Assembly (NCBI RefSeq): GCF_030684315.1
Contig: NC_081383.1
Coordinates: forward strand, 19,947,942 to 20,011,941
DNA: 64,000 nucleotides
Source: Stegostoma tigrinum
Lineage: Eukaryota
Direction of reading: 5' to 3'
Shown here: piece by piece, positions 6,143 to 45,739 of the stretch
Layout of the letters: each line of letters begins with the position of its first letter
Numbering within the stretch: the first letter of the stretch is position 1
Translations under genes and position numbers: made by a program
Notes under the pieces: model-generated
Database searches by the model: none
The model's input: the letters and a program-made list of their open reading frames with translations, nothing else
What the model was told of the DNA's origin: nothing

Positions 6143-6934
6143 GAGTATTTTCCTGCCTGGTTTTTAAACTCTGGGGTCCGTTGAGCTGGATTGCCTCACT
6201 TCCAGTTTTCCTTTGTAGTGGAGCATATATGGGGTCAAGTTCTATTTATAAATAAATGACTTCCTTCGTGGCTTGCCAGGCTTTAGGAATTCCCATGCCA
6301 GTCTCTGCTTAGCTTGTCCCAGTCGAATTGGTCGTTCTGCTTGTCCACGTGGAATGAGCTGAGTGAGTATTGGTCGTGTCTTTTTGTGGCCAGTTGGTTT
6401 TCATGTACTCTTGTTGTTTCTTTTCTGTTTGTCCGATGTAGTGTTTCTCAAAGTCACTGCAGGGGATCTTGTAGATGACATTGGTCCTGTCCATGGCGCG
6501 GAGTGGGTCTTTCGTTCGGGTGATCAGTTGTTGTAGGGTTGATGTGGGCTTGTGTGCCACTCTGATGCCCATCAGTCATAGGAGTCTTGTGGCTAGTTCC
6601 GATGTGTTCCTGACATAGGGTAGTGTGATGAGCATGTCAGGGCGTGTGGTATCTTCCTGATGTTGTTAGTGTAGACATCTTCTGACCCAGTTTTTTGGAT
6701 ATCCATTATCCTTGAAAACCTGGAAGAGGTATTCTTCTTCCTCTTGGCATAGTTCTGTATTGCTGCAGTGTATTGTCACCTGTTTAAATAGTGTTCACAC
6801 ACAACTTTGTTTGGGTGTGTTGGGATGGTTACTGTTGAAGTTCAGTACCTGGTCGATGTGTGTGGCTTTTTCAATACTTTTCTGACCTTGGAATGATACG
6901 AAATTGGAAAGATGGTGAGTAACTTGAGAATCAC

Positions 6935-10725: not shown

Positions 10726-10779
10726 TTTTAAGATTAGTACCAAGCCTGAACGAAGGGCGACTAGAGTTTAGAACCTGAC

Positions 10780-11700
10780 ATTCAGCAGCAAAACGAGTGC
10801 GAGACAATTTTCGGTAACCTTATGCCAGATAAAGGTGCCGAGCAGATTGTTGTCTCCGAATGGATTGTCAGCGTTCGTGTAGCCCATGTACTCCTCGCTC
10901 CAGCCCATTTTCTCCCTCTTCTTCCTTTCTTTGGCCTCTTTCCTAGCCAGGCGGCGGGCCCGCTTCTCCTCCGGAGTCTCGATGGCCTTGGCCAGTTCTC
11001 GCTGCTGCTTCTTCTCGGCTTTCTGCCTCAGCTTCTCCTGGAGGCTCAGCAAGCGGCTGACACTGCTCGGGCTGCGGGAGGGGGAAGGGGAAGAGGAAGA
11101 GGAAGAGGAGGTCGAACGGGGAGAAGGCGGCGGTGAACGAGACCGGCTCCGGGATCGGGCGGGGGAGGAGCGCGATTTCAACCGTCGGTCGCCTTTGGGA
11201 GACGGGCTCCGGTTCCGGCTGCCCTCCCTCCTCCATCTCCCGTCCCGGGAAGCTGACCGGGAGCGGCGCCGCTTCTCCTTCCTCTTGTGGTGGCTGTGGC
11301 TGTGGCTCCGGCTCCGGCTCCGGTCCCGACTCCGCTTCGAACTCATCGTTCACTCAACCGTCAACACCAGAACTAAGGTCCTCTCACCCGCCGGCGCAGC
11401 TCTGACCATAACCCGCCTGACCCACTCCATCGATCGTTTCACTAATCACCAAACAGAAATAATGTCTCGCGTTTCTTTTGCGATAAGAAAGCACAAAAGA
11501 AAAAACAAATATGGGGAAGTATCACTGGATTATATTATAAACAGACGAATCAGGCGCCTGTGACCATTTGGGTCCTTTTCCTGGTTGTGGTCTCGTAGTA
11601 AATGCGACACAGGCGGCTGGAGGAAGTCGGTCGTTGTCAGTGTCTGAGGTTGTGCGGTGGTAGCGTTTGCAGACCTGAGCTAAGGTCCGTGGGTTCAGGT
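10780..11700 (-). promoter_or_regulatory. CpG island / CACTIN promoter and first exon
   Basis: High GC and dense CpG around and upstream of the cactin start codon, in an otherwise CpG-depleted window. Confidence 0.75.
10819..11346 (-). CDS. CACTIN: Cactin coding exon 1 (RS-rich N-terminus)
   Basis: ATG at 11346. RS/His-rich N-terminus followed by the conserved ETPEEKRARRLARKEAKERKKREKMGWSEEYMGYTNADNPFGDNNLLGTFIWHK|gttacc; 528 nt, phase 0. Confidence 0.97.
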
Positions 11701-13130
11701 TCCATCTGCTCCAGAGGTGTGTTATGATATTAATAATTTATGATGCAAATAATCAGGTATTTGAAAGTTGTGTATAAGGACTGTTCGGAGTGACCGTATG
11801 CTGAAGAAGAATGATTGTTTCAGAATTATATAACAGTGAATAAACATGGTTGTAAATATTTAAAGATTTTATTTTTCTTCTGGGTTGATGCTAAATTTAT
11901 CACAGGGAGTCCTGGGGGACAGGAAGGAAAGTTAAGTTCACAAGTATGTCAGCTTTGATCTTGTTGAATGGTGGAGCAGTTTTGAGGGCCCAGTGGCCTA
12001 CTTGAGCTCCTATTTCTGGTAAGATATAAAGAAAACTTAAGCCAAAGCTACGCTTTACCCTCCCAATCCAAACAAACTACTCTCCCAAACATCCCACTGA
12101 CCTGATTACAAATTCACCTAACCCAACTGGGCTATCCACTTGGCTACTTCACCCTGTATGACCCAAACTTGCCTCCCTATTTCATCCAGCAATCCCCGAT
12201 CTACTAACGCAGCCAACCCCCATCCAAATACCTGCTTCATTTACCTATCTGTTCACTCATCTATTCAATAACATCAAAGTATACTTTCAAACAAGTGTTT
12301 ATTGAGTTAGTCTCTGTATTTCAAGGCAATAATATGCACAATAGCTCCACTTGACAAATTTCTTTGTACTTAAGATTCACAGTATATTTATTCTGTAAGG
12401 TACCTTGTACAAGTATAGTGGAAGAAAATTGTTCTTCATTTTTATAAAGTCTTGAGTTAAGTACTATGCCACTTTATGATGCAATCTTTCATACATAGTT
12501 TTTGGTGAACAAAAATGGTACAGATTATGTATTCTCTTACACACTTTTTTTGAACAACTTTAAGCTAGATATTATTAAGTCATTGGTAGTACAGTGATGA
12601 ACATATTTTCAACAGGGAATTGACCATAATACAAGATCTGTTTTCTACCTCTACAATCAGATAACCAGAGTTATCTTTTAGACTGTCCATCAGAGTGGCA
12701 ACTACAGGTCCAAGTGCTAAACAGCCTTTCAATAAAGGAAAACTGAATGGGCTATTATTGAGTAATGTTCTGAGGGGCATTTACAAATGTGGAGTAAAAT
12801 TATTCAACTGCATTAATACCTGTGTGCTGAAATCATGTTGATGGATTCAATAATGAATTTGATAACTTAGATTATTTGAAAATATGGATCCAAATATTTT
12901 AAAAATTATTAAAAGCAAATCTCAGCTGCACTAATTATATTGGCTCAATTTTCAAAGTGATAAAGTATTGATTCACTTCAACATTTTCCTTCAATCTTCT
13001 GTGGGATGGCATGAATAAAATGACAGCTGACCACTTTGTTTTGCCTCGTTTTTACTTACATTTAATATTTTCCTCACAATCTTGCGCAGAATATATATCT
13101 CATTATTTTATACAACTTTTCATACATTCA

Positions 13131-13498
13131 TTACAAGTGCCACACTTTCTTCATATATGCCTCTTTAAAACCATAGTCACTGATGTAGTACCCCACATCT
13201 GGATGACTTTTCAGGCTACAAGCAATAGAAGTTGTTTTAAAATATTCCAGAAACTGATGTGTTATATTCTGAATACTAATAATTGTGTCCTCTAATGCAG
13301 GCAACACCCTATTGACATACTGCGTCCAATCTGGAAGATTTATTTTCCACCATTCCTGGTCAGGATCAGGCAGAACTGTTCCATTTGATTCCAGGACATG
13401 GACAGAATTCTTGTATAATTCCTCCGAGAGCTCCAGAACATCTTTGCAGAACATTTCCAAACAGACTAGTGATTCTGGAAACACGCAGAATAAGGACT
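13131..13498 (-). CDS. Uncharacterised gene, terminal coding exon (exon 4)
   Basis: Acceptor ctctcttttcttttcaag|AG TCC.. (phase 1). Encodes SLFCVFPESLVCLEMFCKDVLELSEELY..DQEWWKINLPDWTQYVNRVLP..YMKKVWHL-stop. Candidate minus-strand AATAAA signals lie near 12300-12390. Confidence 0.8.
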
Positions 13499-14589
13499 CT
13501 TGAAAAGAAAAGAGAGATATTTTTCACATGCATTTATTCTATGCTAGTACTGTAGGGTAGGTTCAAGATTCTAAATAAACATTTTTAAAAATCTGTATGG
13601 CAGTGTCTTATCAGTGGCTTTCTCTTCTTCTTGAGGTCTCTGCCGAAAGGCGAGACTAAGTCACTGTTCCATAATCTCCACCATGGATAGAGCAAGAAGA
13701 CTGGTGCTGACTCCACTGCAGCTGGAATGGGAATCATGCCCCATGGTATATGGTACCAATCTGATTGAGGTAACTGGACTAACCAAGACCATAAGCTGTT
13801 AGTTTCCTGGGTGTACCACTTCTGAACAGTATTCTGGGTAATGACACAGCGCCTTCCACCAGCTCCAGTTGAAAGACATAAGCCACCTTGTTCCTACAAA
13901 CCAAACTTCCAGACTCCCCAAACCCCCTACTGATCAGCAGAACTGATTTTTCTCTACCTGTTAGCACTCGACTCCTCATAGTTCTCAGTCCTTTCTTACC
14001 CCTACTGCTCGATTACCCACCTCCTGCTCTGTTCTCTTTCTTTTCCATTCCAAACCCCACATCCCTTTCTACATCCTCCCCCATCTCCCTATCTTCCAAC
14101 CCACGATTTCTATCCCTACTCCCTTCCCCATCTCTCTTGTTGCTACAAATTAAAGTCACCATGCGACCTTCTGGATGAATCTAGGGTGCTTCTCACAATT
14201 TGAAAAACCAGATCACTGTTCAACTTACGTGCAGATAGTAGACTTTAGTAAGAAGGTAATCTGACACTCATTCTATCACACGTCAGAATCTTTCATCTGT
14301 CTAAACTTTCAAAAGTTTAAGAAAACTGATTTTAAAGAAGAGAACCGCAAGCATGTAGTCAAGCAAATCGTGCAAGGACCAATGATTTAAACTCAGTCAG
14401 GAATAAGCATGTTTGATGTGGTCATACACCACTATTACTTTGTATTCTGGCTGTGAGGATGCTGCCTCTGAGTGTCTGCCTCTCTGGCAGCTTTGACCGA
14501 CGTGCCTGGGTGGCCACGGAGCAGGAGTTAGCATGTTAGCATACACTTGAAGCCTTCTGTAACTCACAGACATCCCTGGAAGTCAAGTA

Positions 14590-14880
14590 TTTATTTTTCA
14601 TTCGCTCATGAAATGTAGGCGTCATTGATAAGGCTAGCATTTATTGTCCATCCCTAATTGCCCTTGAACTGACTGGCTTGCTTGACTGTTTTGAAGGCCA
14701 CTTAACCACATTGCAATGGGTCTGGAGTCATATGTGGGCCAGACCAGGTAAGGACAGCAGTTCCCTTCCCAAGGGGAAATTTAAAAAATCATATGGAATT
14801 TTACGACAATCACCAAACCTAAATGCCAAGAGTGTTACTCTGGAATTCTGGATTACTAGTTCAGTGACGTTACCTCAACT
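14590..14880 (-). mobile_element. tRNA-derived SINE with LINE-type tail
   Basis: Reverse complement of the family seen at 23220-23545 (ctggagtcatatgtgggccagacc; gcatttattgtccatccctaattgccc). Confidence 0.65.
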
Positions 14881-15003
14881 ACATTAGTTGTAGCACTCTA
14901 AACAGGGTCACCTTAGGTTTTCTATTTGTTTCATGGCTCTGCGGAGACTCAGCGCCTTCTTAATTTATTTAAACAAAGGACATAGTGTTATAAAAGAACA
15001 TAC

Positions 15004-15070
15004 CAGCACTGGACTCAGAAATACAGCTCCCCACAGTCCGGCTTTCTTTGTTATGCATGTGTATCAACTC
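15004..15070 (-). CDS. Uncharacterised gene, coding exon 3
   Basis: Strong acceptor tttgcatctttccttctttatttactacag|GAG; encodes ELIHMHNKESRTVGSCISESSA G|gtatgt. It is 67 nt, phase 0 to 1, and exactly bridges exons 2 and 4. Confidence 0.75.
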
Positions 15071-16264
15071 CTGTAGTAAATAAAGAAGGAAAGATGCAAA
15101 TTGTTTGCTGAAATCCTATTTCTTTATTTGTCAGACTGCTTAGTTTACAGCACAAAGGATTTGTCTTTTTCTACTGAGTTATATAGTTGCACAGGGACTT
15201 CCTATAATGGGATGTGAGTCAGTCTCAGTCTTGCCATTTAAAAGGAGATAGAGTTGTATTAGGTTTCGTTAATCACCCTGATGGAATTGGGTAATATGAG
15301 GCATTAAAATCACTGAGGCAAGATGCTACTTATACTCTGCAATTTCAACTGTGACTTAGGACCTCATTCCAGGCAACGATGGAGCTGATGGAAATACAAA
15401 ATGGTGGGGTCTGAGGATAACAATTACTTTAGCATATTTTCTGTGAGGTCAACACCTAGTGCTCACCTCCAGTAGTCACAGATGCCAAAACACAAGATGG
15501 AAAAGATAAATTGTAAACCTTTTCTAGACTCCACAAGGAAATCTAGGGCCTTCTATACCTCAGACTTTCCTTCGATTGCCTGTGATTTGCTTTAGAGACC
15601 TTCAACCCCCATTTAGATGTATTTTTACTGGTGCATTTTTTCTAACCCTGTTGCACATGCTTGCTATCTGCTGGGGCCTCATTTCTGCCAGGTTATAGAG
15701 AGAATTGGGGCTAATTTATATAAATAAAGGAACAGGGGTCTTGACTTCATGCCAGTAACTAGGTGAACTTGGTGCTTGGCTACCATTACATTTGGGCTAT
15801 TGAAATTGTACACAAGTTTATTATGGAAAGTAAACAGCTTCAGCAAAATATAGTGATTAATGGCCATTTGGAGAGTGAGAGGAAAAGGATTTAACATCAC
15901 ATAACTCCTGAACAATTTATTTTACAATGGCTTTTGTTGTGAATGGAAGCAGTCTGCCGCTGCAGAATAGATGTGACAGGACAAAGCTATAGACAATAAC
16001 ATCACTAATAAATCAGAAGGACCAAACTACTTAAAACGTGACTTAACTAATGCCGAGAGTTACTTGGAAACTGTAAGCATGTATACAATGGGGGAATGCG
16101 GCCAAAAGTCTCTCAAGCTTCTGGGTGGTACCATCCTTTGTTGATCATTTTATTTTTCTTAATTGTAGTCATTCTTTCACAAGGAGGGCTATGGTATGAT
16201 ACAGTTGTTGCAAGTTCTCATGAGCCCTTACTGCAAAGTTTCAAGTCCACCAAGTCTATTCCAT

Positions 16265-17020
16265 ATTTCTAAATGGTGAGAAAATTCGTAAAGCAGAAGT
16301 ACAAAGGGATCTGGGAGTGTTGGTCCAGGATTCTCTAAAAGTTAACTTGCAGGTAGAGTCCGTGATTACGAAAGCGAATGTAATGTTGTCGTTTATCTCA
16401 AGATGGTTGGTATATAAAAGCAGCGATGTGCTTCTGAGACTTTATAAAGCTCTAGTTAGGCCCCATTTAGAATACTGTGTCCAATTTTGGGCCCCACATC
16501 TTAGGAAGGACATACTAACCCTGGAGCATGTCCAGTGGAGATAGCCACGGATGATCCCTGGAATGGTAGGTTTAACGTATGATGAACGGCTAAGGATCCT
16601 GGGATTGTACTCATTAGAGTTTAGAAGGTTGAGGGGAGATCTAATAGAAACTTACAAGATAATGTATGGCTTAGAAGGGGTAGACGCTGGGAAGTTGTTT
16701 CCATTAGGTGGGGAGACTAGGACCCATGGGCACAGCCTTAAAATTAGAGGGGGTAAATTTAAAACTGAAATGAGACGACATTTCTTCAGCCAGAGAGTGG
16801 TGGGCTTGTGGAATTCATTGCCACGGAGTGCAGTGGAGGCCGGGACGTTAGATGCCTTCAAGGCAGAGATCGACAAATTCTTGATCTCACAAGGAATCAA
16901 GGGCTCCGGGGAGAGTGCAGGGAAGTGGAGTTGAAATGCCCATCAGCCATGATTTAAATGGCGGAGTGGATTTAATGGGCTAAATGACCTTTTTTCCACT
17001 CCTATGTCTTATGGTCTTAT
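16265..17020 (+). mobile_element. CR1-clade LINE 3' fragment
   Basis: LYKALVRPHLEYCVQFWAP, RRLRGDLIETYKIM and HFFSQRVVGLWNSLP; 3' tail cttatggtcttat. Confidence 0.9.
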
Positions 17021-17609
17021 ACAGCTGTGACGCCTTTGCACTCAGGTCAATAGCCACCAGTTTCATTTCTCTGTTAATGTGAACAGCATGAGTCAGGTGG
17101 GGCAAAAACTATTGGTATTCAAGAAGCCACTACCTGTAGTGCTCAGGCCATTATTGTAACTAAGGTTTTGCCTGTATGGCTTTGAATCCCACTCTCATTG
17201 CCTTTTAGAGAGTTCGTGTGACCTAATGGTAGTGTTTGTACCTTCGAACCAGGAAGCTGGGTTCATGTCCCACATGTTCAGGAGGTGGCAGTTAATAGTT
17301 ACAAGCAGAAGAAATCTTGGTGATGGGGAAAAAAGTCAGTTGTGTGTGATAGCACTTCCAGATATAAAAAGGAAAAAAGAAAGCTGGGTGCTTCACTCAT
17401 TCCTAAGTATTGGACTTGCATTTGATGGTGGTCTTAATGCAAATTAATAACTCAGCATCAGTAGTTAATGCAGTCATTTGAGTGTGTAGAAGCATTTACT
17501 TATGAAGGGGTTTACAGCCTACATCAGGGTGTCAACAGATTGCTACTTTATACATAGTCAGGGAGAAGGTAGCTGCTCTTGGGTCCTCTGTTGTGATGAG
17601 TCTGCAATT

Positions 17610-18325
17610 AGACATAGCAGGAAATTTGAAGCACAAAGGGACTTAGAAGTTATGCTTGCTCAGGATCCACCTAAGGTTAACATGTGAACTCAGTTGGCAG
17701 TTGGGAAAACAAAAGCATTGTTCACATTTGGAGAGGGCTAGAATGCAAGTGCAGGGATATACTACTGAGGCTGTGTAAGGCTCTGTTCAGAATGAATTTG
17801 GAATACTGAGAGTAATTTTAGGCCCCATATCTAAGGAAGAACGTACTGGCCTTGGAGAGGGTCCAGAGGAGGTTTACTAAAATGATTCCAGGAATTAAGA
17901 GCTTGCTGTATGAGAAGTGGTTGAGTTGAGGACTCTGGGCCTTTACTCAATGGAGTTTAGAAGGATGAACAACAGGGATCTCACAGAATGCTGAGAGGTA
18001 TAGACATGGAGAAGATGTTTCAACCAGTAGGAGAGACTAGGAACCAAGGCCACAGACTCAGTGAAGCAATGACCTTTAGAACTGAAATGAGAAGGAATTG
18101 CTTCATCCAGAGGGTGGTTAAACAGTGAAACTCATTGCCACAGAAGACTATGAAGGTCAAGCCATTTAGTGTATCTAAGACAGAGATAGATAGGTTTTTG
18201 ATTAGTAAAGGCATCAAAGGTTATAGGAAGAATGGAGGAGCTTGGAGTTGAGTAATATAACAGAGACTAATTGGCTGACTGGCATAATTCTCTTCCTTTA
18301 TCTTATGGTTTTATGGTCTTTATGA
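17610..18325 (+). mobile_element. Older CR1 LINE 3' fragment
   Basis: Degenerate parallel of 16265-17020, ending tcttatggttttatggtc. Confidence 0.75.
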
Positions 18326-18506
18326 ATAAAAGTGATCAGGACATTGAACTTCAATCTAGATTGAGTTGTCTCTTCTGCATTCACCATGTTGGATAACAGA
18401 TGTTAATATAATTCTTCTGGCTCCTGTTTGTCAGCATATAGATGGCAAAATGTTTACATTGCAAACAAATTTAATGCAAAAGGTTTTGACAGTGATAGTT
18501 GCCTAC

Positions 18507-18708
18507 CTCAGTGGTCACCGCTGCATGGCGTAAATTTTTTTTCTGTAAATATATAAATTCTGAGATAAATTTCACATGTTGCTGCTCAATAGAATTCAGT
18601 TCTATATCAGTAACACCTTTTCGATGGAGCTCATATACTTTTCCACTCCAGTTGCGGCGAAGACTGGTGATGCTATAGGTTGCCTCTGTGGACTCTGTAC
18701 CATTCCAC
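18507..18708 (-). CDS. Uncharacterised gene, coding exon 2
   Basis: attgcag|G TGG..: (R)WNGTESTEATYSITSLRRNWSGKVYELHRKGVTDIELNSIEQQHVKFISEFIYLQKKNLRHAAVTTE|gtaggc; 202 nt, phase 2 to 0. Confidence 0.78.
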
Positions 18709-18854
18709 CTGCAATATAATAACAGACAAAGGTTTTCAATTTTAGAATACTTCATGATTTATCTAGTGAATTTCAGTGCTGAGGTGTTGACAGGCCCGTT
18801 GGCCATATGTCCCAAAGACTGTCCAATAGTTTAAAATAGCATATCCTTTCAGCT

Positions 18855-19094
18855 AAAAACTGAAAGAACTGCGGATGCTGTAAATGAAATAAAAATAGAA
18901 ATTGTTGGAAAAGCTCAAAAGGTCTGGCAGCATCTGTGGAGAGAAATCAGAGTTAACTTTTTGAGTCCAGTGACCCTTCCTTGGAATTGAGGATATTAAC
19001 TCTGATTTCTTTCCACAGATGCTGCCAGACCTTTTGAGCTTTTCCAACAATTTCTATTCTACTTTTTGAGTTTTTCCAGCAGTTTTTGTTTTTG
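18855..19094. mobile_element. Fold-back Penelope-terminus mini-element with TSD
   Basis: Near-perfect inverted arms aatagaaattgttggaaaagctcaaaaggtctggcagcatctgtgga..gttaa and their reverse complement. Flanks are tatcctttcagct (18842-18854) and tatcccttcaact (19095-19107). Confidence 0.8.
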
Positions 19095-19111
19095 TATCCC
19101 TTCAACTGTTT

Positions 19112-19315
19112 GTTTAGCTCATTTGGCTGATTTGCAATGTACAATGATACCAACAGCATGGGTTCAGTTCTTGTTGTGGCTGAGGTTACCATGAAGGACT
19201 TACCTTCTCAATTGCTCCCCTCTCCTGAAATGTCACGACCCTCAGATTAAATCACCACCAGTTGTCTCTAAGGAGAGAGCAGCACTATGGTCTGTTGGGA
19301 CTATGACAACTTTAT
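19112..19315 (+). mobile_element. tRNA-derived SINE (second copy reversed at about 51665-51860)
   Basis: ttagctcatttggc A-box, gggttcagttc B-box, and shared body accctcagattaaatcaccaccag..gagagcagc. Confidence 0.6.
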
Positions 19316-20599
19316 TTTTGCCTTTTACCTTCTGTAACAAGCAAGGTATCGACCATAGCCAACTATACCCAAACAGCTGGTGCTTGCAAAATCCCGTAAC
19401 CCAGTGTACAACATTAGATGTAATTCTACAATTGGACAGCATTTGGTGAATGATTCCAAATGTTTGTAGAATTGTGCTGACAATGAGTATTGTCAGTCAA
19501 GCTAGCAGTGTAGTGTACATATGTGTACTAGAAGCGTTATATATTAATACACAGGGCTTTTTCTTTGCAGACAGAGAGAATTTGTACATCAATTCTACCT
19601 GTTTCAACTCAACAGAATAGATGACAGCATTTGATGGCAAAGTCCTGACCAATCAGAGTCAGAGTTTAGAATTTCGGCAAAGCTTGATATTTAAGTGTCA
19701 TTCAGCATTAATCAGTGCATTTTCTCTGGCCATGCCTCTGTCAGAGTCCACTTGCTGACCTATCAGTATTATCACCTCATGCAGAATAAATGTTGGTTTT
19801 CCATTTGAATTGTCCAGATGAATGAAATGTGAAAAGCTTCAACTAAGTAAGTCTTTCTTCAATGTGCTGATTTAAATGAAGAATTTTCAATGCATGATCA
19901 AACAAAATTTTCGGTATATATGCTCTGTAATAGAATTTTCAGACTATATTCTCTCTAAATTACATGTCAAAAATGTCTACAGAGGTATCTTGTAATATAT
20001 GAAAGTGATGGATAGAAAAGATCCACTCTTCCACACCTCAAATTAAATGGGACTTTCCTAAAATGTTGAGCTTTCTTTACTTTCCACAGATGCTGACTAA
20101 CTTTCTGTATACTTCGTTTCAGGTTTCCAAATAATAGGCTGGAAATTGGCAGACAGATCCACACGAGGCTCGGAAGAGGACTCCTGCTTACTTCCACATC
20201 CATTCTCTCTTGGATAAGGCTTTCAAGAGTTGAGTTAATAGCTGATGTCTGCTTAGGCTTTACAATGTCTAGAAACAGGAGACTTGGATGCTCTACCCAT
20301 TTCTGGAATGTTGCAGTTGTGATTCCGTTCCAGACATTGCCAAAACTTTGTACAGAATTTTTGGGTTCAGATATTTTGTAATTTAGCTTTTCTGAGATGT
20401 TGTTATAAACTTTGGTGGAGGATGAAATTTGTTCCTACCACTACAGCATTTCCCTGTTCAGGGATGTTGTGACACTTCTTTGGAACAGGCGAGACCTTAA
20501 CCTGGGCCCCCTAGCTCAAAGTTGTGGATGCTACCACTGCTCCACAACAGCCCAGGTCTATATAAAGACGAAACTGAAACTTAATAAAAGTGGACAAAT

Positions 20600-22610
20600 A
20601 ACACCCTGAGTCGCTGACCTCCTATTCTTCAAGCAAGACACATGCATGGCAGAGAAACTCTGGTACTTTCATCCAGAGTTGAGGGATAGGATCTTGTTGG
20701 AATGCTATAAGCCTTCCTGGTTACAGGCTATTCAAATGAGGTAGATGGGGGAATAGAGGAGGAGGGAATCCTAATATTGATCAAGGAATCAATTATAGCA
20801 GTGAGGAGGGATCCTATCTTTGAACGATCATAAAAGTAGAGCACATTGATGAGTGAAATAAAACACAAAAAGGCAAACATGCTAGACACGCGAAACAGTC
20901 ACAAAGAGATAATCAAAATTTCAGAGAATTGTATGAATAATAAGGTATTAATAGTAGTGGATTTTAACTACACAAATATTAACTGGGATTGTTTCAGAGC
21001 GCAATCTAGGGAGGGCACAAAATATTTAAATTGCATCCAGAACCGTTTTAGCCGCAGAGAGGAGCCTGGGCAGATGGCAGGGAACATTTTGTACATAATC
21101 ACCATAATTTCATTAGATTTTGGATAGTGAAGGAAAAGGATAAGGATGGGCTGGGAATAAAAGTTCTAAATTGGGAACGGCTTTGTCTTACTAAGATAAG
21201 ATACAATCTGGTCCAGGTGGACTGGGGGCAGCTAGTTGCACATGAAACTGGGCAGTGGAGGCATTCAAAAAGGAACTAGTGAGACTACAGAGCAAATATG
21301 TTCCCATTAAAACAAAGGATGGGGCCAAAACCACAGAAGTCTAGATGGGACATAAAGTTTAGGTCTAAGAAAAAAAAGAAGTCAAAGCAGAAATCAAAAG
21401 CTCAATATGGTGAAATGCAGATGGTAATTTAGGAAAGCTAAGGGAGTGCATGAGAGCATTTGTGGGTAGAATAAAGAAAAACCCAAAAGGGTTCCGTAAT
21501 ATATAAACAGCAAGTGAATGACTAGGGAAAGAGTAGGGCCTATTGTGGACCTTAGAGCCAATATGTCTGTGGACTTAGAAGTTAGAGGCATAATCCTCAA
21601 CGAATACTTTGTGTTCAGGTTCACAATAGAAAATGATGCAAGTATAAATTTCAGAGGTGGAGGACTTTGAAATTTTGGAGGCAATTAACAAAAAGTACTA
21701 GCTGGTTTTAGCAGCCATATAAATGGATAGCTCTGCAGACCTGTATAAGATGTATCTCTGTAGAGTAAGTCAAGACAGGAGATAACAAGGGCAGTAATTT
21801 TCAAATGTCCTTTGGCCATAGGTGAGGATCTGGAAGACTGGAAGGCTAATGTTGTCACATGATTTTTAAAAATGAAGAAAACTGGAGATATATCAAGAAA
21901 TTACAGGCCAGTCAGTCTAACTTCAGTGGTAGGGATGTTATTAGAAAGTACTCAAAGTGTCAGAGTATATCTGCAAATTAAAATGCACGGATTGATCAGA
22001 GATAATCAACCTGGATTTGTTAAGGTAAGGTCACGTTTGACAAATTTGATCAAACCTTTTGAGGAATGCTGATGAAGTAATACGATTAATGAGCACTATA
22101 TTGACTTCACCAAGGCTTTCGATAAGGTTCCTCATGGCAGACTTATCAACAAAATAAGAAACCCATGGGAAAGTAACATGTTGGATCTAAAATTGACTGA
22201 GAGGCAGAAACATGAGCTTGATGTTACAGGAATGTGATTGGAGGTGGGATTCTGCTAGGCTCAGTGCTGATGCCCTTACTGTTTGTAGTGTGTGTAATTT
22301 ATTTGGATTTAAATATATGGGACATGATCAAGAAGTTCATGGATGGCACAACATTTGGTGGCAAAAAGTAAAGAGGACAGCTGTAAACTGCAAGAGGAAA
22401 TCAATAAACTAATCAGCTGGGCAGAGCAGAGGCAAATGAAATTCAACATGGAAAAGTGTGAGATCATGTACTTGGGGAGGGCCAGCAAAGCAAAAGATTA
22501 CATGATGATTCATAGAAACCTGAAAAATATTGAAAATCAGAGGTACCTTAGTATGCCTGTTAACAAATCCCTGAAGATAGCAGAGCAGATACATCAGATG
22601 TTAAAGTGAT
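20600..22610 (+). mobile_element. Long decayed CR1 LINE ORF2 (endonuclease to RT)
   Basis: IVVDFNYTNINWD, NYRPVSLTSVVG, QPGFVKVRS, DFTKAFDKVPH and MKFNMEKCEIM remnants with many indels. Confidence 0.85.
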
Positions 22611-23219
22611 ACAAATGTTGTCAGATGAATATAAGTCACTTCTTTCTAAAAACATAAAGCATGAGACACGCTATAAATTCAAACAAGGCAAGTTCTACCC
22701 TTATTTTAAATGTAATCTAAATAAGAACAATTTTATGGGAAATTAGTAAATGTTTACTTTTTATTAGTTTGTTTAAATTGGACTTTTATAAAGACGCAGA
22801 CACTAAGTGAGGAATCTACTATTTTAACATTATTTATCTTTCTATGGCAGTACCTTCGTATGCTACACTACCTTCTATTGTATTACATGTTACAACTGAT
22901 ATTATTGAAGTATTAATTTTTGATATGTTCTATCAAGATGACTTGATTTTACAGAAAATATGAGCAGGAATGGCCCATTTGGTTTCTTGAGCCCGTTTCT
23001 TTATTCAATAAGGTAATATATTATCACCAAACACCACTTTTCTGCTTGATCCCTACATTCTCAAAGGTTGGCTGATTTCATTGGACATTAGCAAATGTCA
23101 TGTACTTGGTTAATTCAGAAATTAACATCTTATCCTGTAATGAAACTGTTCCAATTCTTGTTTTGCAATTTTATAAAGTTATACCTGGGTATGATTTACT
23201 GTAACAAACTGCATCAGGG

Positions 23220-23547
23220 GAAGCAATACCTTAGTGGTACTATCGCTGGACTGTTAATCCAGATAACCAAATAAGGCTCTGGTCACCTGGGTTTGAATCC
23301 CACCATAACAGATGGTGGAATTTGAAATCAATTTGAATTAAGAGTCTAATGATTTCCATGAATGCACTGCTGATTGTCTTGGAAAAAAAACATTTGGTTC
23401 ACAAACGTCCTTTAGGGAAGGAAGCTGCCATCCTTGTCTGGCCTACATGTGACTCCAGACCCACAGCAACATTGTTGACTCAGTCCTCTGTGCAATAAAT
23501 GCTGCCTAGCCAGTAATGCCCACATCCCATGAATGAATAAACAAAAA
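23220..23547 (+). mobile_element. Full-length tRNA-derived SINE
   Basis: tRNA head (tagtggt..ctgggtttgaatccc), body ctttagggaaggaagctgccatcct, and tail gcaataaatgctgcctagccagtaatgcccacatcccatgaatgaataaa. Confidence 0.75.
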
Positions 23548-24299
23548 TGCTAAATATAAATGTAACTGCATAAAATGCTTAAGATATTTAATCAAATTCT
23601 GGAAAAGCAATGAATGTTAGCTCTTGAGAATTAAAATAGTTTAATTCCAATGTACAGTAATGGATAGCTTGTATTTTGTTGAAATATGATATAGATCAAA
23701 ATGGGGAAAAATGGCTACAATGATACACTGTGTTAATAACAAATAGGATGGCATCAGGTGGGTGGAGGTGACTATTCAATTGCGGCTAATGCTCATGTTA
23801 CAATACAGGAATTGTATCTAGGCCATTGCCTTGGGGACACTGAATTAGTTTGAATAGATAAGAAAGGTGTGAGTATATTGGTGGTTAAAATGGAGAAATG
23901 ACTTATCAGCAAGGAAAAAAGTGATCAGGATATTGTTAGGCCCAATGAATGTCGAAAGGTTCAGCATGATTTGTTTAAATCATTCATCCTTTAATCTGGA
24001 GGAAAAAGTGCCAGATAAGATGAAAAAAAATTTCAAGCTTGAAAGCTAGGTTTCACTACGTACCCAAAGAATGTCTGGAATTACTTTGTTATTCTAAGGT
24101 AAGTGTAGAATGCCTTCAGATGAACAATTGCATTTTTGATGTCCAATGTAAAAAAAAATTCTGACACGAAAAAATTTAAAAATCAAAAGATAAGGTCACA
24201 CTAATTCTAATTCAAATTGAAATACCATGGCAAGAGGTCTAAGACAAAAAGGTTTCTATCACACAAGTATTAAGAGGGAAGGAATGAATATGCTCATGT

Positions 24300-25276
24300 C
24301 GGTGGTCAGTGTTGGGTCCACTGCTGTTTGTCATTTTTATGAATGACCTGGATGAGGGCGTAGAAGGATGGGTTAGTGAATTTGCAGACGACACTAATGT
24401 CGGTGGAGTTGTGGATAGTGACGAAAGATGCTGTAGGTTGCAGAGAGACATAGATAAGCTGCAGAGCTGGTCTGAGAGGTGGCAAATGGAGTTTAATGCA
24501 GACAAGTGTGAGGTGATGCACTTTGGTAGGCGTAATCGGAAGGCAAAGTACTGGGCTAATGGTAAGATTCTTGGTAGTGTAGATGAGCAGAGAGATCTCG
24601 GTGTCCAAGTACACAGATCCTTGAAAGTTTCCACCCAGGTTGACAGGGCTGTTAAGAAGGCATACAGTGTTTTAACTTTCATTAATAGAGGGATCGAGTT
24701 CCGGAACCGAGAGGTTATGGTGAAGCTGTACAAAACTCTGGTGCGGCCGCACTTGGAGTATTGTGTACAGTTCTGGTCACCGCATTATAAGAAGGATGTG
24801 GAAGCTTTGGAAAGGGTGCAGAGGAGATTTACTAGGATGTTGCCTGGTATTGAGGGAAGGTCTTACGAGGAAAGGCTGAGGGACTTGAGGCTGTTTTCAT
24901 TAGAGAGAAGGTTGAGAGGTGACTTAATTGAAACATATAAAATAATCAGAGGGTTAGATAGGGTGGATAGGGAGAGCCTTTTTCCTAGGATGGTGACGGC
25001 GAGCACGAGGGGGCATAGCTTTAAATTGAGGGGTGAAAGATATAGGACAGATATCAGAGGGAGTTTCTTTACTCAGAGAGTAGTAAGGGAATGGAACGCT
25101 TTGCCTGCAACGGCAATAGATTCGCCAACTTTAGGTACATTTAAGTCGTCATTGGATAAGCATATGGACATACATGGAATAGTGTAGGTTAGATGGACTT
25201 GAGATCGGTATGAAAGGTCGGCACAACATCGAGGGCCGAAGGGTCTGTACTGCGCTGTAATGTTCTATCTTCTATG
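24300..25276 (+). mobile_element. Young 5'-truncated CR1 LINE with intact 292-aa RT C-terminus
   Basis: SVLGPLLFVIF, FADD, LVRPHLEYCVQFWSP and FFTQRVVREWNALP; 3' UTR and gttctat-type tail. Confidence 0.95.
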
Positions 25277-28200
25277 AGTGATTTTATTGTCATGTATATT
25301 TCACAGTGAGAAGAACAATAAAATACATTGAAGAGCTTTTCCCCTGTTGCCATGATCCATGAATTGATAGTATTAAAATTGGAAGAGTTCATTCAGAACC
25401 TAGATGAGAATGTTATATGTAGTTTACTGCACAGTATTCACTTACTTCAGTGCATGAAAAAAGTTAAATATGACAAAACACCCTCACATTGTTTTCTCTG
25501 TTAAAACAAGTGTTAATATGAAAATCATTCAAGTGAATGACTTCTGCCTCTTTGGTAATTAATGCTAGCTATAAGCAAAAAGTACTTAACAACTGCAATG
25601 CTATTGCTCTGAATCTTATTTTGATACTTAATAGTTGATGCAGTACGCATGTAGTTTGATAAAATGATTAACATTGCATTGAGAGCCTTCTTAAACTCCA
25701 TTTTAATTTGCCAAAATATAATTTAAATGAATGATAGGTCAAGTGATTTCCTGACATGCATTCACTATGAATGCTGTCCATTACTGGAGGAGTGTTATCA
25801 GGGATTCATCTCTTATCTGTGAAAACTAGGGTCCACTTTTATGCTGAAGAATATTTAGAGAATGCTTGATATGGTTAAGAATGTCATAATGTTACCTTAC
25901 CATCTACAACCAGTAGATGAAGTAGGTGGTGAATGGTACTACAAAAGGGCTGGATTTTATCAGTGGTGGGTGGTTGAACAGACGAATATCTATTGTTGAA
26001 TGAAGCAGCGAAAGGTTTTCAGTGATTTACAAAGGTTTAATTGTAAATCTAAAGTTTAACACAAATACCAGTTTCCACCTTTTTCTTCTGGACACTTTCC
26101 TTGTCCAGAGGCTAATTCCCCACTGGCAATGAAACCAAATTAGTTTCATATTAAGAAGTGCTCTTACACACAACTGAATTTTTTTTATACCACCACATCA
26201 TCAGTGGTAATTTTTCCAACTGTTGACCACACCAATAAATGATCCCACCTTTTAATCACAAAGTCCAATGAACAGCTCACCAGTCTCAATTATCTCTGAA
26301 GATGTGCTGGTTTAATTTAGAATCATGTTTAAGAATTAAGGTTTTATTGTTACATATACTCAAGTACAAAAGTACAGGAGTACAATGAAAAGTGCACAAA
26401 GTTCTCATTCTCCAGCGCCAACTTAGGTATTAAAACCTAAGTAAGAAGAAAGCAAACATCTCAGATACAAAACCAAACCAACCATTTGAGGTACAAAACC
26501 TAAAAAGGACCCGTATTTTTAACATGGGTGTCCTAATGCCAAGCTGGAAAGTCAATACAACCGAGTGTTTAGTTGACCTCTGACAAGATCTTTTTAGAAC
26601 TGTGTCCCAACCGCTTAAAAGACAGGAGCCTATCTCCAAGAACTACCATCTATTTGAAGGATTGATAACTCTTAACTTGTAGAAGTGCCACTGAGTGTGA
26701 TATTTACTGCTGGGACTGCAAGTGTCAAAACTGGATATTAACTTCCCCACAAGAGGTTGGAGTGCTAATGGAAAGGATAATGAGGTTTTCCACGGGATAA
26801 CCTTTGTCACTTGGGACCCCTGGACCACAGATTACCAAAACAGGCAGCCTGCCCTAGCCAACAGCATAATTGCCAGGTTTCACTGGGAGGTGTCCTCACA
26901 TAGTGGGAAGGCCACCAGCATAAATTTCCAGTTGGTATCTCCAACAAGAATACAACAAATATACAACATTATGCAACAGGTAAATTGCCGGTGATTGTAA
27001 AAATAAATTGTTAGTCCCTGTTGCAAATAAAATTCTATTGCATTGGAAAGGTAACAGGTAGTCTATGACCTCACCTTCTCAAACAATTTTCTAACAAACA
27101 TCCATCTCCCTGTCTTTAGAGGGTTCTTAAATTGAGCCCATTAGTGTGGAAAGCTCAACTCCTTGGGAGGCTAAATCATTAATGCTAAAATGCAGGTGGG
27201 AGTTTCACTTTGTGGTCTAGTTTTGCACAGTGCTGGAATTCTTCAATGAACAGCCTCAAGCATGAAGGGAGATGGAAATTTGCTGGCATGTCACATATCT
27301 CTTAGCTTTGTAACATTACAGAGTCAGATTGGAATCTCATTCCAAAGTATTTCCCAACCCTTTGCAATTTGATGGTAGTTTGTACAAGGATCAAAGTAAT
27401 TGCAATTACTCCACATTCCCATATGTGTCTTCATGCTTCTCGGAACCAGACCACACCTAGTCCCAAGATTATGTTCAGCTGAGAGCTGAGCTTTAAACCC
27501 TACATTCTGCTAATTTACCTTTGTAAGATCTCACGCACTGACCTCTATCAGGATGCACCATCATTTACATTGTTTCCAATTTATTATCCTTTCTAAATTA
27601 TTTCAATTTTTCTTCGCTAGTTTTTCCATTATGTACCCTCAATCAATTCTACTTTTTCAAAATTGAAATATATCCATTTCAAACCAAGCCCCATTTATCA
27701 TTCACTTCACCCTTTTTAAAATAACAGCTTCTTTGATTCTTGATTCCATAAAGTATAAAGTTTAAATTCCTCATCTTTATGTTTCAAATCCCTCCACTGC
27801 TGCTTTGACATTTCCTGCAATGAGGGAATGTCACTGCCTGCCATTTCGTATTTAAGTCACATGCCACCCTGACTTGGAACTGTACTGCCATCCCTTCACT
27901 GTCCTGCCATCACTTCACTGTCAAAATCCTGAAACTCACTCCCTAACAGTGTTGCTACACCATAAATATTGTGGAGGTTCAAGAAGGCGGCTCATCACAA
28001 TCATCCTAAAGGCAATTGAGAGGAGGTAATAAATGCTGGTTTTCCTACATCCATGAACATTAAAAGAAAACTGCCTTCAGCTTTATGTCTGTGAATTGCA
28101 TCTTATGGTCTGAGACAATGGCCCTTTTCCAAAGGACACAGATATATGGAGGTTGGCAAAGAAACCAAGGTAACATGAGGAAATTGTTTTTGGAAAATAA

Positions 28201-29574
28201 AGATTTTGTGATCTGGAATGCCATGCCTGAAAAGTGGTGGAAGCAGATTCCATTGATACTTTCAAAAGGGAATTGGATAAAAAGAGAAGAAAAATATATG
28301 ACAGTGGGAAAAACATAGGGAGAGGAACTAATTGTGAGTTCTTTCAACAAACCAGTGCAGGAAAATAGCTCCACTAACCTCCTTTTGTGCTGTACCACTC
28401 TACTATTAGTAATGCAGAATAAATGGTAACAATGCTGAACTGGTCAATCAATAATCCAAACTTAAAGGGCAAAAAAACCAATAGATTTTACAATATATTG
28501 GAAAAAAATAAATGGAAAGCATTTGGAATCTTTGGAAATGTGGTAAAGGAAATAAAATTTGAATCTGGAAATATACAAGACTGCAAACAATAGACAGTAA
28601 AATGTCCTCCCAGTAATTTAATAATCAGGGAAAATGCTTAATGGCTGGATGTGCAAACCCTGTACATAACAGCTCAATAATAAATTACCCTATCCACAAT
28701 GTGTCAGAATTTGCTGGAGTTGAGCATCTTTATTACATTTCAAAATCAAAAATGATCTTAAGAATATTTATTGCTGTAATTTGCTGGTAATTTGTACTGA
28801 TTACAGCACAATAAGGGCAAGAGGGCATATGAATGGCAGGAGCAACGATATATTCCCTCTACCAATTCTACTTAGGCAAGGCTGGATTTCACAACCTTAT
28901 CAAATACATGTGAAGAATTAAAGACAAAAAGATATATTGAATTAAGAAGGATGAGAGACAGAAAGGAAGTACAGAAAAGAAAATTAAAATCTAAAATTAA
29001 AAAAAAACTCCCATGTTAATTAAATATCTAGAGGATACCTTTATAATTGTTCACTTTCTGGGCCAGTGACTTTGATTAGCAGTTATCAGTAATGATCATG
29101 TAGTTGAACGGGTGCTAATGTTATTAATTATGAGACATCTTTCTTAGTGGCTGTATAATGTGCAACAGCAGTAACTTCACAGAAGTCAGGAGGAGATGGA
29201 GGGTGAAGTGCCATTCCTTTGATGGTAATGAGTGGTGAAAATTAGTCAATAAATTTGGGGATTTACAATTCAGAGGGAACCTACTCTTTGCCTCAAGTTG
29301 TTGACCAATTACCACATCAATGAAATACATCTTGTTCATATGCTGTTATTATATTAGCAAATTTTGGCATAATAAAACAAGAAATTCTCCACATGAAAAG
29401 CCTAACCCACCTTTTGTTTGCAATTGTTTTTGCACTTGTCTACTCCTTCACTGTCTCCTTCGCCTTCATAATCTACCCAATGCTAGTTAGTTAGATCTTC
29501 CTTTCTCTCTCAGCTGTGAATCAGTTTGCATCACTATGATCCAAAATTCACTCCATCAAATTAAAACACAAAAA

Positions 29575-29718
29575 ATCTAGGCTGACCCTCCAGTATAAAA
29601 CCAAGGGTATGCTGCATTGCTGGAGGTGCTATCTTTCAGAAGATATGATAAACTGAGGAACTGTTTGCTTTCTCAGGTGGATTAAAAAAACCCATGACAC
29701 TGTTCTGACGAAGAACAG
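29575..29718 (+). mobile_element. Deu-domain SINE (SacSINE1/AmnSINE-like) fragment
   Basis: aggctgaccctccagt..gctgcattgctggaggtgctatctttcaga..taaactgagg..ctcaggtgga matches the Deu core. Similar copies occur at about 9400-9990, 44050-44780 and 49255-49570. Confidence 0.6.
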
Positions 29719-29922
29719 AGATAATGGGATCTGCAGGTGCTGGAGAATCTGAGATCACAAAGTGTGGAGCTGGATGAACACAGCAGGCCAAGCAGCATCT
29801 TAGGAGCACAAAAACTGACGTTTCGGACTTAGATCTGATGAAGGGTCTCGAAACGTCAGCTTTTGTGCTCCTAAGATGCTGCTAGGCCTGCTGTGTTCAT
29901 CCAGCTCCACACTTTGTTATCT
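29719..29922. mobile_element. Fold-back Neptune-terminus mini-element with TSD and central hammerhead
   Basis: Arms of about 75 bp, 29751-29825 and 29849-29923. Flanks are ctgacgaagaacag (29705-29718) and ctgaagaagagcag (29923-29936). CTGATGA-agggtctc-GAAACGTC lies at 29835-29857. Confidence 0.85.
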
Positions 29923-30812
29923 CTGAAGAAGAGCAGTTTGGCAAACTCACCCTGAATTGCGTGTAGTCTAACTTTACTAATTAGTCTACCATGCAAAACT
30001 TTGTGGAAGGCTTTACTGAAGTTCATGTAAACAACATTTACCATTGTACCCTCATCAATTTTTTTTCGGTTACTTCCTCAAAAAAATCAAGTTTGAGAGA
30101 CACCATGACTGGAAAATATCAAAGTGAAGGCAACTGTCTGTAATAAAGCAATTTATACTTATGATGAAAAGATTGAAGCACTGATTAGTTCCCAATAAAC
30201 GAGGTCATTTCACACATACTTGGTCCAACTCACAGTGTACCCCACAACCGGGGCACTTTGTCATCACTCAAACGTTCAGAACTCTGAACCCTGAATTACT
30301 TTACAATCGGAAGATTCCATATTTTGTGGAGTTTGTAGCCCCAAGCCCATCAAATTTTTTAGATGCGTTATTAATGCAAAGATCACAGTTTTCTTCGCTG
30401 TTTTGAGTTATCACTTCCCGATGCCCGAGCAATTTTACACAAGCCATTCTCTGCGGATCAGAAGCGGTGAGAATTCATGAAGAGAGAATTATTTTGGGGA
30501 CAGAATGCAAGATTAGAAACTTTCCCACGCATTAATGTTAATAAATGCAGCACATTATTGTGGTCACACATCTGTTGGAGCCGAAAGGAGCTACTTCACA
30601 AATGCAAGTGAGAGAATCTGTCACTATTTCCAAATGTCCAATCCCTCCCAAACTCCTGATTGCGGATTTAATTTATTCTCTTCTCTGACCTAGATTAAGA
30701 AAAGCATCCGCAGTGCACTTTTTAAAAATACGGTAAACTACGACATTATCCATCATGAGTTGCAGATGCCTTGTAAATACAAATTTAACAAAACAAACAT
30801 GTAACGGTCTAC

Positions 30813-31063
30813 CTTCGATACAGATTGACAATGTCATTAAGAGCATCAGCCCACTTCCAGCGGTAGTACAGCAGCAGGATATTAGAAGGTCTGCTGATCC
30901 ACTGTTTGGATGCATTTCCGATTGATTTGAGCAAGATTACTGCATCTCTCCGGGCTGCGTTTAACAAAGCTTCGTGACTTTTGATTAAATCCACTGACCA
31001 GAGCGCCCGGTATCGCTTGTTGGAAATGTCACACTGCTGCAACATGTCTGGATGGACTGTCAT
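30813..31063 (-). CDS. Uncharacterised gene, first coding exon (start uncertain: ATG 31063, 31045, or ORF extends to 31426)
   Basis: MTVHPDMLQQCDISNKRYRALWSVDLIKSHEALLNAARRDAVILLKSIG..YYRWKWADALNDIVNLYR(R)|gtagac. Its phase 2 end matches the phase-2 acceptor at 18708. Confidence 0.65.
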
Positions 31064-31159
31064 CTGGTGGAGCTGCTGGTGTTTGCAGTCATAGCGCTCA
31101 GCCACTGCAGATAGCCATCTCTCTCTACCTATGTATCTCACCGAGATTGCAACAAATTT

Positions 31160-31305
31160 CACTGACGTCACAGTGATGGACTTGCTGTGAAATGATTTTA
31201 AACTCAGCCCCCGCCAAGTTACAAATATAGAAACGGTATCATAGCAACAACTGGCAGCAAGTCCCACGAGTGTCGAACGGGTGTCAGGCCAATCAGTGAT
31301 AAGAG
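31160..31305 (-). promoter_or_regulatory. Putative promoter of the uncharacterised gene
   Basis: CRE TGACGTCA 31163-31170, CHR-like TTTAAA 31197-31202, E2F TTGGCGGG 31210-31217, X-box-like GTATCATAGCAAC 31236-31248 and CCAAT 31289-31293. All lie inside a CpG-retaining segment of about 30180-31500. Confidence 0.55.
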
Positions 31306-33119
31306 AATTGTAACGGATTACATGTCCTTCCTGGCTCAGGGATGAGCAAAATTTGGAGCTAAGGTGCAGAACGTTGCAAATACGCAAGATGCTAATTTCC
31401 AACACCTTTGGAATATCAATTGCCATCTGGAGATAGCAATTGCAATGACTACAACAAGTTTGTCACTCTGTGAATACCCAAGTGCGTGTAATATTGCCAG
31501 CTAGATGATTGGTGAAGGAAGAGAATTTTAAGTAGTGCAAAAGTCAGTATGAGCTTACATTCCCCCCTACCTCCCCAATACTGTTGGCTGAGAAGATTTA
31601 TTTAGCTCAGAAACCTTATTATTGAGGTGGTACCTGTTTCTGTTCCATTTTCACAGTGGCAACTGCAGATGATAGATGCCACCTGTAATCGAATGCATTT
31701 TGGGATGGAGCTCCTGCAGTAAAGAATAAATTGTGACTATCAGCTCATTGTGGTCAATGTAATGATAAGTGAGAAACAGTGATTCCTTGTTTCACTTTAT
31801 TAGTTAACAACTGAGACCATTATGAGAGAAATATTAAAGTTTCCGTTTTAAAGTTGGCAAACGTTTGAGACAGTGTGTCAACGTATGAAAACCTTCTGCT
31901 TGGGAAGAGTGGGAATAAAAAAAACACAAGTTGTGATGTTAAGCAGAAAGATGTAAAAACATAGATACACCTTTCATTTGGTGCTCCATTTCCACGAACA
32001 CTCTCCAATAGGGCTGCAGCAGTGAAACTCTCGAATCATGAAATATCTTAAGGCTTTTCATTGTTATATTAAATTGTGAGTATTGGGTCATAATTGAGGC
32101 TAATAAACTTAATGGCTTCCAGTCAATCCAGCAGAAAAGCTCAAAATTCCCATGTTGAACAAATATGAAATAATTTTTAGTTTTGCAAGATAAAGAGCAA
32201 CAGATCTGAAACACACCAAAACAGAATTTGCTGGTGAAACTCAGCTGGCCTGGCAGTATCTGTGGAGGGAAACGAGTTAACTTTTTGAGTTATTATTAGC
32301 CTGAAAAATTAACAATCAAGACTAATTCAAATGTAAACATGCACAAAGAAATTAAGGTAAAGGCGCGACGTACTTCATACTGAGTGTTTACATTGGCAGC
32401 TTTCCTGAACTATGACATTCTAAAGGATATGCATTAACATTTAATGGTAAGATTTAATCATATAATGTTTTAAAGATTTAATTACTTACCGTGCTTTACT
32501 GATAGAAATAATCTATTCTCTGAAGGATGCCATCTGTTTGACTGTTCAGATTGTATTTTGAGAAAGAACCTAACTGAAGCCAGGTTTAAAAAGAAATGGA
32601 ATAACCTGGATGTTTGACTGCGTGGTTATATAATATTTTATTATTCTAACAATTTCTGCTTAAGATTTTATCCATCCTGTAATTCTTGTTGTATTTGCTA
32701 CACATTTTTGAGATCCAAATTGAAAATGATAACATTTTTGTTTTTGGTCGTGGTTCATTGGGATATTTTGTAAATGAGACTTTTGGATGAAAGACAAAAG
32801 TTCATAGTACAGAATACTTCTAAGGATAAGAAGAAAGGATGTTCAGGTAATTTGAATTATCTTTGGACAATGAATCATAAAATACTTCATGTGGAATATG
32901 TGCAGTCAGTGTACAGGCAAAAGCCAGAGCGGAGGATAGCTGACTCTCTTCTCAGTTAGCTAATAAAGTGGGTGTACAAGCCTATGTGAGAGGGTAAGGG
33001 AGTGTACATCAGATAAACTCTGCTAATCAACCAAACAAGATAAAAAAATTGTTCGCACAAGTCATTAGTTATTTTTTATATTCCATGATGCAATTTGGCA
33101 ATGAGTGAATCTTAAATCC

Positions 33120-44043: not shown

Positions 44044-45739
44044 CTGAGTGTGAAACGTAAGGCTGAATGAGAGCAGTAATGGGGCAGATACCAACTTTTA
44101 AATGAGATGTTAAACTAAGGTAGCATCTGACTTGATTGATTTTTTTTGTTGTCACATACTAAGATACAGTGAAAAATGTTTTTTGTATGTTACAAAGGGA
44201 GATTGTACCATACAAAACGCATCAGGGTAGCAAGACAGAGTGCAGAATGCAGTGTTACAGCTGCAGAGAGGGCGCAGACAGAGATCAGAAATAACATCTG
44301 AGAGGTCTGTTCCAAAGTCTGATAACAGCGAGGAAGGAGCTGTTCTTTGATCTGTTTGTGCGCATATTCAAACTTTTATATCTTTTGCCCAATGAAAGAG
44401 GCCAGAAAAGAGCATGTCTGGGGTGAAAGGGTCTTTGATTACGTTGGTTGCTTTCCTGAGGGCAGTGGCTGCAAGTTTGGTTTGCATAATGGACTGGGCT
44501 GTGTTCATAACTCTCTGTTTGCTCAAGTAAATGTAAAAGGTCTCCTCACCAGGAAATTCATCCTAGTGTTCTGGCATTGTCTATCCAACAATCAACATCA
44601 CAAAAATAGATTATCTGGTGACTAAACATAATTATTTGCATAAATTTGTTTTGTACAAATCAGCTACCACGTTTCCTACATTATAACCATGTGAAAAGTA
44701 CAGAAGTATTTCATTGGTTATACATTTTTCTGGGAAAATTCAGTAATCGTGAAAAGCCAATATGAAGAGAAGTCTTTCTTTCTTTGTGGTTGTTGCCTGG
44801 AGCTTGTGTTCTGTGACTGTTTCCTGCCACTTATCAGGCCACATCTGAATGTGGTCTATGCCTTGCTGCATTCAGGCTTCAGATTGCTTCATTATCTGAT
44901 GAGTTACGAATGGAACTGTACATTAAACAATCATAATTGAACATGGTAACTTCTGGCCTTACGATGGAAGGAAGATTATTGATGATTATTGGTCTCAGGA
45001 TACTGCCTCTGAAGACCTCTTGCAGTGCTGTCCTGGGGATGAGACACTATAACCACCTTCTTTTCTGCTGGGTATGACTCCAAGCAGTAGAAAGTTTCAC
45101 CCCTCTCCTGTCAATTCACATGGATAACAATTTTACCAGGACTCCTTGATGTCACATTTAGTCAAATTCCACCTGATGCCAAGGGCAGCCACTCTCATCT
45201 CACTTCTGGATTTCAACTTGTGCATCCATATTTGAACAAAGGCTGAAAAGAGATCCTGAGCAAAGTCATCCTGATAGAACTCAAACGGAACAGCATTGAG
45301 CAGGCTATTGGTGAGTAAACTACTTGATAGCACTGTTGGCAATACCATCCATGATTTTGCTGATAGTCAATACACTGTGGATTTTAAATGGTAAATATGA
45401 ACACACAACGGATGAGGATTCCTTATTTAACAGAATGCAAATGAGAGAAATGTGTTGCAAGGCAGTTATACTTTCAGGGAGTAAAGTGATACCAGAATCC
45501 ATGAAAGCAAAATACAAGCGATAAAACAAAAGAGCCCAATGTAGCCATGGAATCCTCAAACATACTGGGTCTGCTTATATAGCAGGGTTGATTTCTGATG
45601 ATTAGAATGCAAAGAATCTGGGTGAGTGATACACTTGCATGGTGGGCCATGGAGACATTTAAATTTCTAGGCACATTTCAAAATCTATACTCAGCTCTCA
45701 GATGAACCTGGCAGAAATCACTGCTTGTACAGCAGAACC

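Follow-up and report, generated by a model that had tools for sequence, protein, structure and literature searches.

A conserved cartilaginous-fish gene next to cactin encodes a predicted four-helix bundle with a possible link to the CINP/C1orf109 adaptors

Introduction

CINP (CDK2-interacting protein; PDB entries 8cih, 9lgo and 9gwj) is an adaptor in the SPATA5-SPATA5L1-C1orf109-CINP (55LCC) complex. According to PMC12019325, CINP and C1orf109 share a layout of five helices, sit as a T-shaped dimer on the N-domains of SPATA5-SPATA5L1 and dock this ATPase on pre-60S particles via GTPBP4 and ES27A. PMC11055677 links both proteins to replisome turnover. For plants, PMC12332008 describes three adaptors of the same fold without sequence similarity, and CINP-like proteins occur in Asgard archaea, as stated in PMC12962969. 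Here, a gene on the minus strand of a 64,000-nt stretch of Stegostoma tigrinum DNA is described (assembly GCF_030684315.1, contig NC_081383.1, positions 19,947,942 to 20,011,941; hereafter the window). It lies directly upstream of cactin, and its product is a candidate distant relative of these adaptors.

Results

Gene structure and splicing

Four minus-strand exons with GT donors, AG acceptors and intron phases 2, 0 and 1 form a continuous frame of 888 nt, coding for 295 residues and a stop codon (Table 1). Ten of the 295 residues are Trp. The exons, the canonical splice sites, the phase chain and the length of the frame given in a preliminary description of the locus were all reproduced. The gene is almost certainly real and functional.

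A contig of 1024 nt (run X9, record 26) matches the minus strand of the window with no mismatched letter. It is placed at 31367–30811 (record positions 1–557), 18706–18506 (558–758) and 13498–13299 (825–1024) and passes over all three introns. The gap of 66 letters between exons 2 and 4 matches the length of exon 3 minus one base of ambiguous assignment. X9 depth over 15013–15035, within exon 3, is 22.2, the same as for record 26, and the residues encoded by this exon are present in all 17 aligned orthologues. Exon 3 is read from this gap, the depth and the orthologues; its piece is not among the contig placements listed, nor are the three splice joints among the 15 joints listed. None of the 12 runs, X9 included, is recorded as RNA. 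A spliced transcript is the best reading of a contig in which three introns are left out at their boundaries. The contigs X1, X4 and X5 come from relatives and include intron sequence.

The second Met of the frame is invariant in all 17 sequences and is the first residue of 13 of them. Thus, the frame of 295 residues stands as described, while the conserved protein starts at the second Met and comprises 289 residues.

Taxonomic range and conservation

The product is identical in 295 of 295 residues to XP_048415441.1, isoform X1 of the uncharacterized S. tigrinum locus LOC125465724. The gene is therefore not unrecognised, as had been assumed. With a RefSeq model in existence the novelty of the model is gone. 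RefSeq assigns no family, fold or function. Orthologues of LOC125465724, likewise uncharacterized, are present in sharks, rays and Callorhinchus.

Protein searches started from exon 4 and from a profile returned 8 and 9 proteins, respectively (members were examined for seven of the nine clusters from the profile search). All named matches are from sharks, rays or chimaeras, and one Logan protein appears skate-like by eye over exon 4. The alignment holds 17 sequences from 16 taxa with 81–99% identity to the window protein, and 186 of the 275 core columns are invariant. Even between shark and chimaera the identity is 81%. In the tree, carpet sharks, lamniforms, catsharks, skates and stingrays fall into the clades expected for them; three forks are weak. 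Among the pieces listed, exon 4 differs from the contigs of relatives at far fewer positions than nearby non-coding DNA does.

Outside this group no relative was detected. HMMER searches of 1.84 billion representatives recovered only the cluster of the family itself, in a library that hides relatives of more than 50% identity; a 90% library gave no further relatives at 30–156, 157–622 or 213–2000 residues. Scans of viral contigs and prokaryote genomes were negative, and matches in PHROGs and NCBIfam had E-values of 0.07 or worse. Pfam searches with each exon and each orthologue gave NigD_C and CFAP58_CC alone, both below threshold, and PDB sequence searches gave a single chance match (VLDL receptor, E = 1.2). 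The absence of a known family, as claimed before, is thereby confirmed for Pfam. The product is not transposon-like either: no transposon family was found in the Pfam searches, and no viral, phage or transposon protein matched (best BFVD E-value 0.14). A domesticated viral or transposon gene was rejected on the negative results from Pfam, the representatives, the viral contigs, PHROGs and BFVD together.

Judged by these searches, the gene occurs in cartilaginous fishes alone across all collections covered; for animals these are protein collections. Of the two origins suggested in the preliminary description, a lineage-restricted gene agrees with this range. An ancient gene lost in mammals does not, since no orthologue was found among bony fish, jawless fish or invertebrate proteins, and the gene is missing far beyond mammals. 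An ancient origin is possible for the fold alone. Along the same lines, an older vertebrate gene might have left orthologues, unannotated or as pseudogenes, next to cactin in the genomes of bony fishes or lampreys. Its single-copy, slow and vertical evolution and the restriction of the animal searches to protein collections would fit such a history, which is also compatible with descent from CINP. At such a rate, however, an intact bony-fish orthologue should be easily found, yet the protein searches gave none, and we regard this history as improbable.

Among open-licence papers no literature was found on the gene, searched by its LOC identifiers and by cactin synteny in sharks. Eight supplements of PMC13188829 hold no match that would record its expression.

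Predicted fold

The product is predicted to be a four-helix bundle. The usable model covers residues 60–263 and consists of four long helices, the first of which is broken twice; the C-terminal 32 residues lie outside the good model. The full-length model has a predicted local distance difference test (pLDDT) score of 42, and fold searches with it were uninformative. Neither a signal peptide nor a membrane segment is predicted in the 17 sequences (best 19-residue hydropathy 1.32–1.35 in all of them), and the protein is predicted to be soluble. A secreted glycoprotein was considered, as there are five sequons, two of them kept in 17 of 17 sequences, but was rejected because no model has a signal peptide.

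The best structural matches of the model are idealised designed bundles. Human CINP and C1orf109 can both be aligned to it over nearly their whole length, and the language-model search of the ESM Atlas and the fold search both indicate the CINP/C1orf109 family.

Two other families came up in these searches. In the ESM Atlas, 24 of 30 matches are clusters of the dynein heavy-chain tail DHC_N1 (PF08385), the top language-model neighbour (best score 0.95 with 180 of 256 features), and WASH-4_N clusters are present too. The protein might accordingly be a stand-alone relic of a dynein tail or of the N-terminal bundle of WASHC4, with an adaptor role at the cytoskeleton or in cilia. Direct comparison argues against a dynein origin. 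The shark profile scored at best 3.1 bits against 35 real dynein N-terminal halves, compared with 6.0 bits for reversed controls, and profile-profile comparison with 13 tails gave 19.9 against 23.6 and 22.7 for reversed controls. These sets derive from 118 loci, which are metagenomic and not the known vertebrate ones; the 35 have at least 1000 open codons upstream and the 13 a full DHC_N1. Furthermore, Pfam reported no DHC_N1 match in the shark proteins. The 50 structural matches listed include neither dynein nor WASH chains, although a family absent from this listing may still match. With scores at or below the reversed controls, the dynein-tail lead was dropped, and a relic of either kind is a poor candidate. 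In some Atlas clusters the labels CA109-like, WASH-4_N, DUF7795 and DHC_N1 occur mixed, a hint at common features or ancestry of these helical families.

In a second fold search the highest Z-score among natural chains was that of YaxA (12.2; root-mean-square deviation 3.5, 182 aligned residues), with XaxA at 11.7 and AhlC at 11.1. A horizontally acquired and tamed α-helical pore former of the ClyA/YaxA type, acting on membranes, would explain this match. It spans chain residues 92–401, however, with more than 100 residues skipped and an identity of 9–10%. Moreover, the protein lacks the hydrophobic segment of a pore former, has no sequence link to these proteins and no prokaryote or viral relative, and such families are not in the Atlas listing. 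A pore-former origin is thus highly improbable.

Comparison with CINP and C1orf109

We consider descent from the CINP/C1orf109 adaptors, as a heavily diverged offshoot, the favoured explanation, with a probability of about 0.4. By eye, the shark protein has a D-P-D followed by Trp in the motif order of CINP. Relative to CINP it has a long fourth helix and two conserved extensions (about 40 and 30 residues), and no significant sequence match. Structure-based identity to C1orf109/AIRIM (PF15011) and to the plant proteins OPNR, OAP1 and OAP2 is 7–9%. Components of 55LCC are described as essential in bioRxiv 2025.11.07.687187, whereas the shark gene is lineage-restricted.

Asgard archaeal profiles served as an intermediate. 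PF15011 matches were found in 98 of 301 genomes (33 above the cut-off), and profiles were made from 32, then from 72 proteins reduced to 17. They match human CINP (35–36 bits in the broader version, E-values 2e-8 to 8e-8), and the broader profile also matches C1orf109 with 18–19.5 bits (E = 0.005). Detection of both human proteins by one Asgard profile is sequence-level support for an ancestor common to all three.

Several results weigh against descent of the shark protein from this family. The Asgard profiles score 1.3 and 3.0 bits at most on the shark proteins, and profile-profile scores between the shark and Asgard families lie inside the block-shuffled nulls. PF15011 (CA109-like) was not reported at E-values up to 10 with 8 and 17 members, although the HMMER filters drop most weak matches. 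By eye, the proline of the C-terminal CINP motif W-x-x-[EQ]-P-Y has no counterpart, and neither do most of the CINP residues that contact C1orf109 (D177, S181, Y182, S184, M185, H188, P190 and Y191; motif and contacts from bioRxiv 2025.11.07.687187). As the shark proteins are missed by a profile that detects both human members, the protein is not filed as a member of the CINP/C1orf109 family. If it does descend from this family, it is more distant from it than the human members are from the Asgard proteins.

A true orphan is nearly as likely as descent from CINP/C1orf109. In this case a four-helix bundle would have originated in the chondrichthyan stem, either de novo or from a source that is no longer recognisable, and would serve as a binding scaffold without relation to CINP; the match in fold would reflect no more than a common arrangement. 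The lack of relatives among the representatives and the designed bundles at the top of the structural matches agree with an orphan, as do the Asgard profile tests, negative although the positive control worked. An orphan explains less well why language-model and fold searches agree on one small family, both human members of which align nearly end to end, and why the motifs follow the same order.

Gene ends, isoforms and neighbourhood

The 5' part of exon 1 contains four short out-of-frame upstream open reading frames (ATG at 31323, 31242, 31118 and 31092), and the stop of the last one overlaps the ATG at 31063. No CpG island is present at the 5' end (31163–31293). Since the promoter-like motifs are located within the part spanned by the spliced contig, there may be more than one start site. 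Ahead of the ATG at 31063 the coding frame has a further 133 open codons (31462–31064, minus strand), and at 31426 an in-frame ATG directly follows an AG. The chance of such a frame is about 2e-4, a rough estimate from local composition that is uncorrected for hindsight. It shows a weak likeness to the N-terminal extension of the Scyliorhinus canicula model (5 of 500 shuffles as high) and none to that of S. torazame (116 of 500). The gene may also have a longer isoform.

RefSeq models of two other sharks splice different first exons to exon 2, and a catshark RefSeq isoform has a 23-residue insertion at the junction of exons 3 and 4. At the same junction, a one-residue Gln indel across species suggests tandem acceptors. 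A second X9 contig (record 25) spans 13328 to 12500 plus 189 further letters, which would take it to about 12311. As it runs towards the AATAAA at 12303, the gene probably ends about 1 kb before the start of cactin.

A Cactin_mid match at 2058–2456 confirms cactin as the neighbour. The preliminary description names PIP5K1C as the human gene upstream of CACTIN. Beyond 31.5 kb there are 193 frames of at least 55 residues. No upstream neighbour gene was found in the 143 scanned, a scan that small exons would escape; their sole match was one reverse transcriptase, and the other 50 lie inside retroelement stretches and were left out. Retroelement reverse-transcriptase frames (Pfam RVT_1) are located at 41990–44158, 24291–25187 and 5231–6163, one of them open for 723 codons. 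By eye, more retroelement-like fragments are present near 16.2–16.9, 35.7–37.0 and 53.9–54.9 kb.

Table 1. Features of the locus (window coordinates).
Feature	Position	Strand	Remarks
Promoter-like motifs	31163..31293	-	CCAAT box 31293, GC-box-like element 31215, full palindrome of the cAMP-response element (CRE) 31170; putative function
Exon 1, 5' part	31064..31367	-	within spliced X9 contig
Exon 1, coding part	30813..31063	-	251 nt; first ATG 31063, conserved start Met 31045
Alternative donor in exon 1	30997..30998	-	putative; from RefSeq isoform X2, residues 23–84 missing in frame
Exon 2	18507..18708	-	202 nt
Exon 3	15004..15070	-	67 nt; from 66-letter contig gap, matching depth and orthologues
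Exon 4, coding part and stop codon	13131..13498	-	368 nt
3' untranslated region	12298..13130	-	second X9 contig; AATAAA at 12392 and 12303
cactin, RS (Arg-Ser)-rich first coding frame (assigned)	10768..11349	-	inside CpG island

Discussion

Descent from the CINP/C1orf109 adaptors would imply that one such adaptor was duplicated and that the copy, after rapid divergence in the chondrichthyan stem, came under strong constraint. The canonical motif for C1orf109 contact would have been lost and the conserved extensions gained. The product would serve to dock an AAA+ ATPase, for instance SPATA5-SPATA5L1, as an alternative and probably tissue-restricted adaptor, with the extensions (residues 21–59 and 264–295) as a possible new partner surface. 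That the protein still acts on the SPATA5 complex is doubtful. The CpG-poor 5' end and the CRE hint at tissue-restricted, perhaps germ-line expression. CREs have a weak link to testis.

In its boldest form, the proposal is that cartilaginous fishes have a third adaptor of the CINP/C1orf109 type, invisible to sequence search and constrained since before the split of sharks and chimaeras, which, possibly in the germ line, is exchanged into the lid of SPATA5-SPATA5L1. We consider this rather unlikely. If true, these fishes would have their own version of the machinery for finishing 60S ribosomal subunits and clearing replisome proteins, parallel to the three-adaptor OPENER complex of plants.

The present analysis adds splicing evidence, a taxonomic range, a usable fold prediction and a testable, unproven link to CINP/C1orf109. 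If this link is true, one lineage within the vertebrates added its own adaptor to an essential machine of ribosome assembly, and the gene is an example of a housekeeping duplicate that turned into an apparent orphan and then froze. If it fails, the gene is a clean case of an orphan that is old and constrained and whose fold can be tested. Genes that are confined to one old vertebrate class and strongly conserved across it are rare candidates for the biology peculiar to that class.
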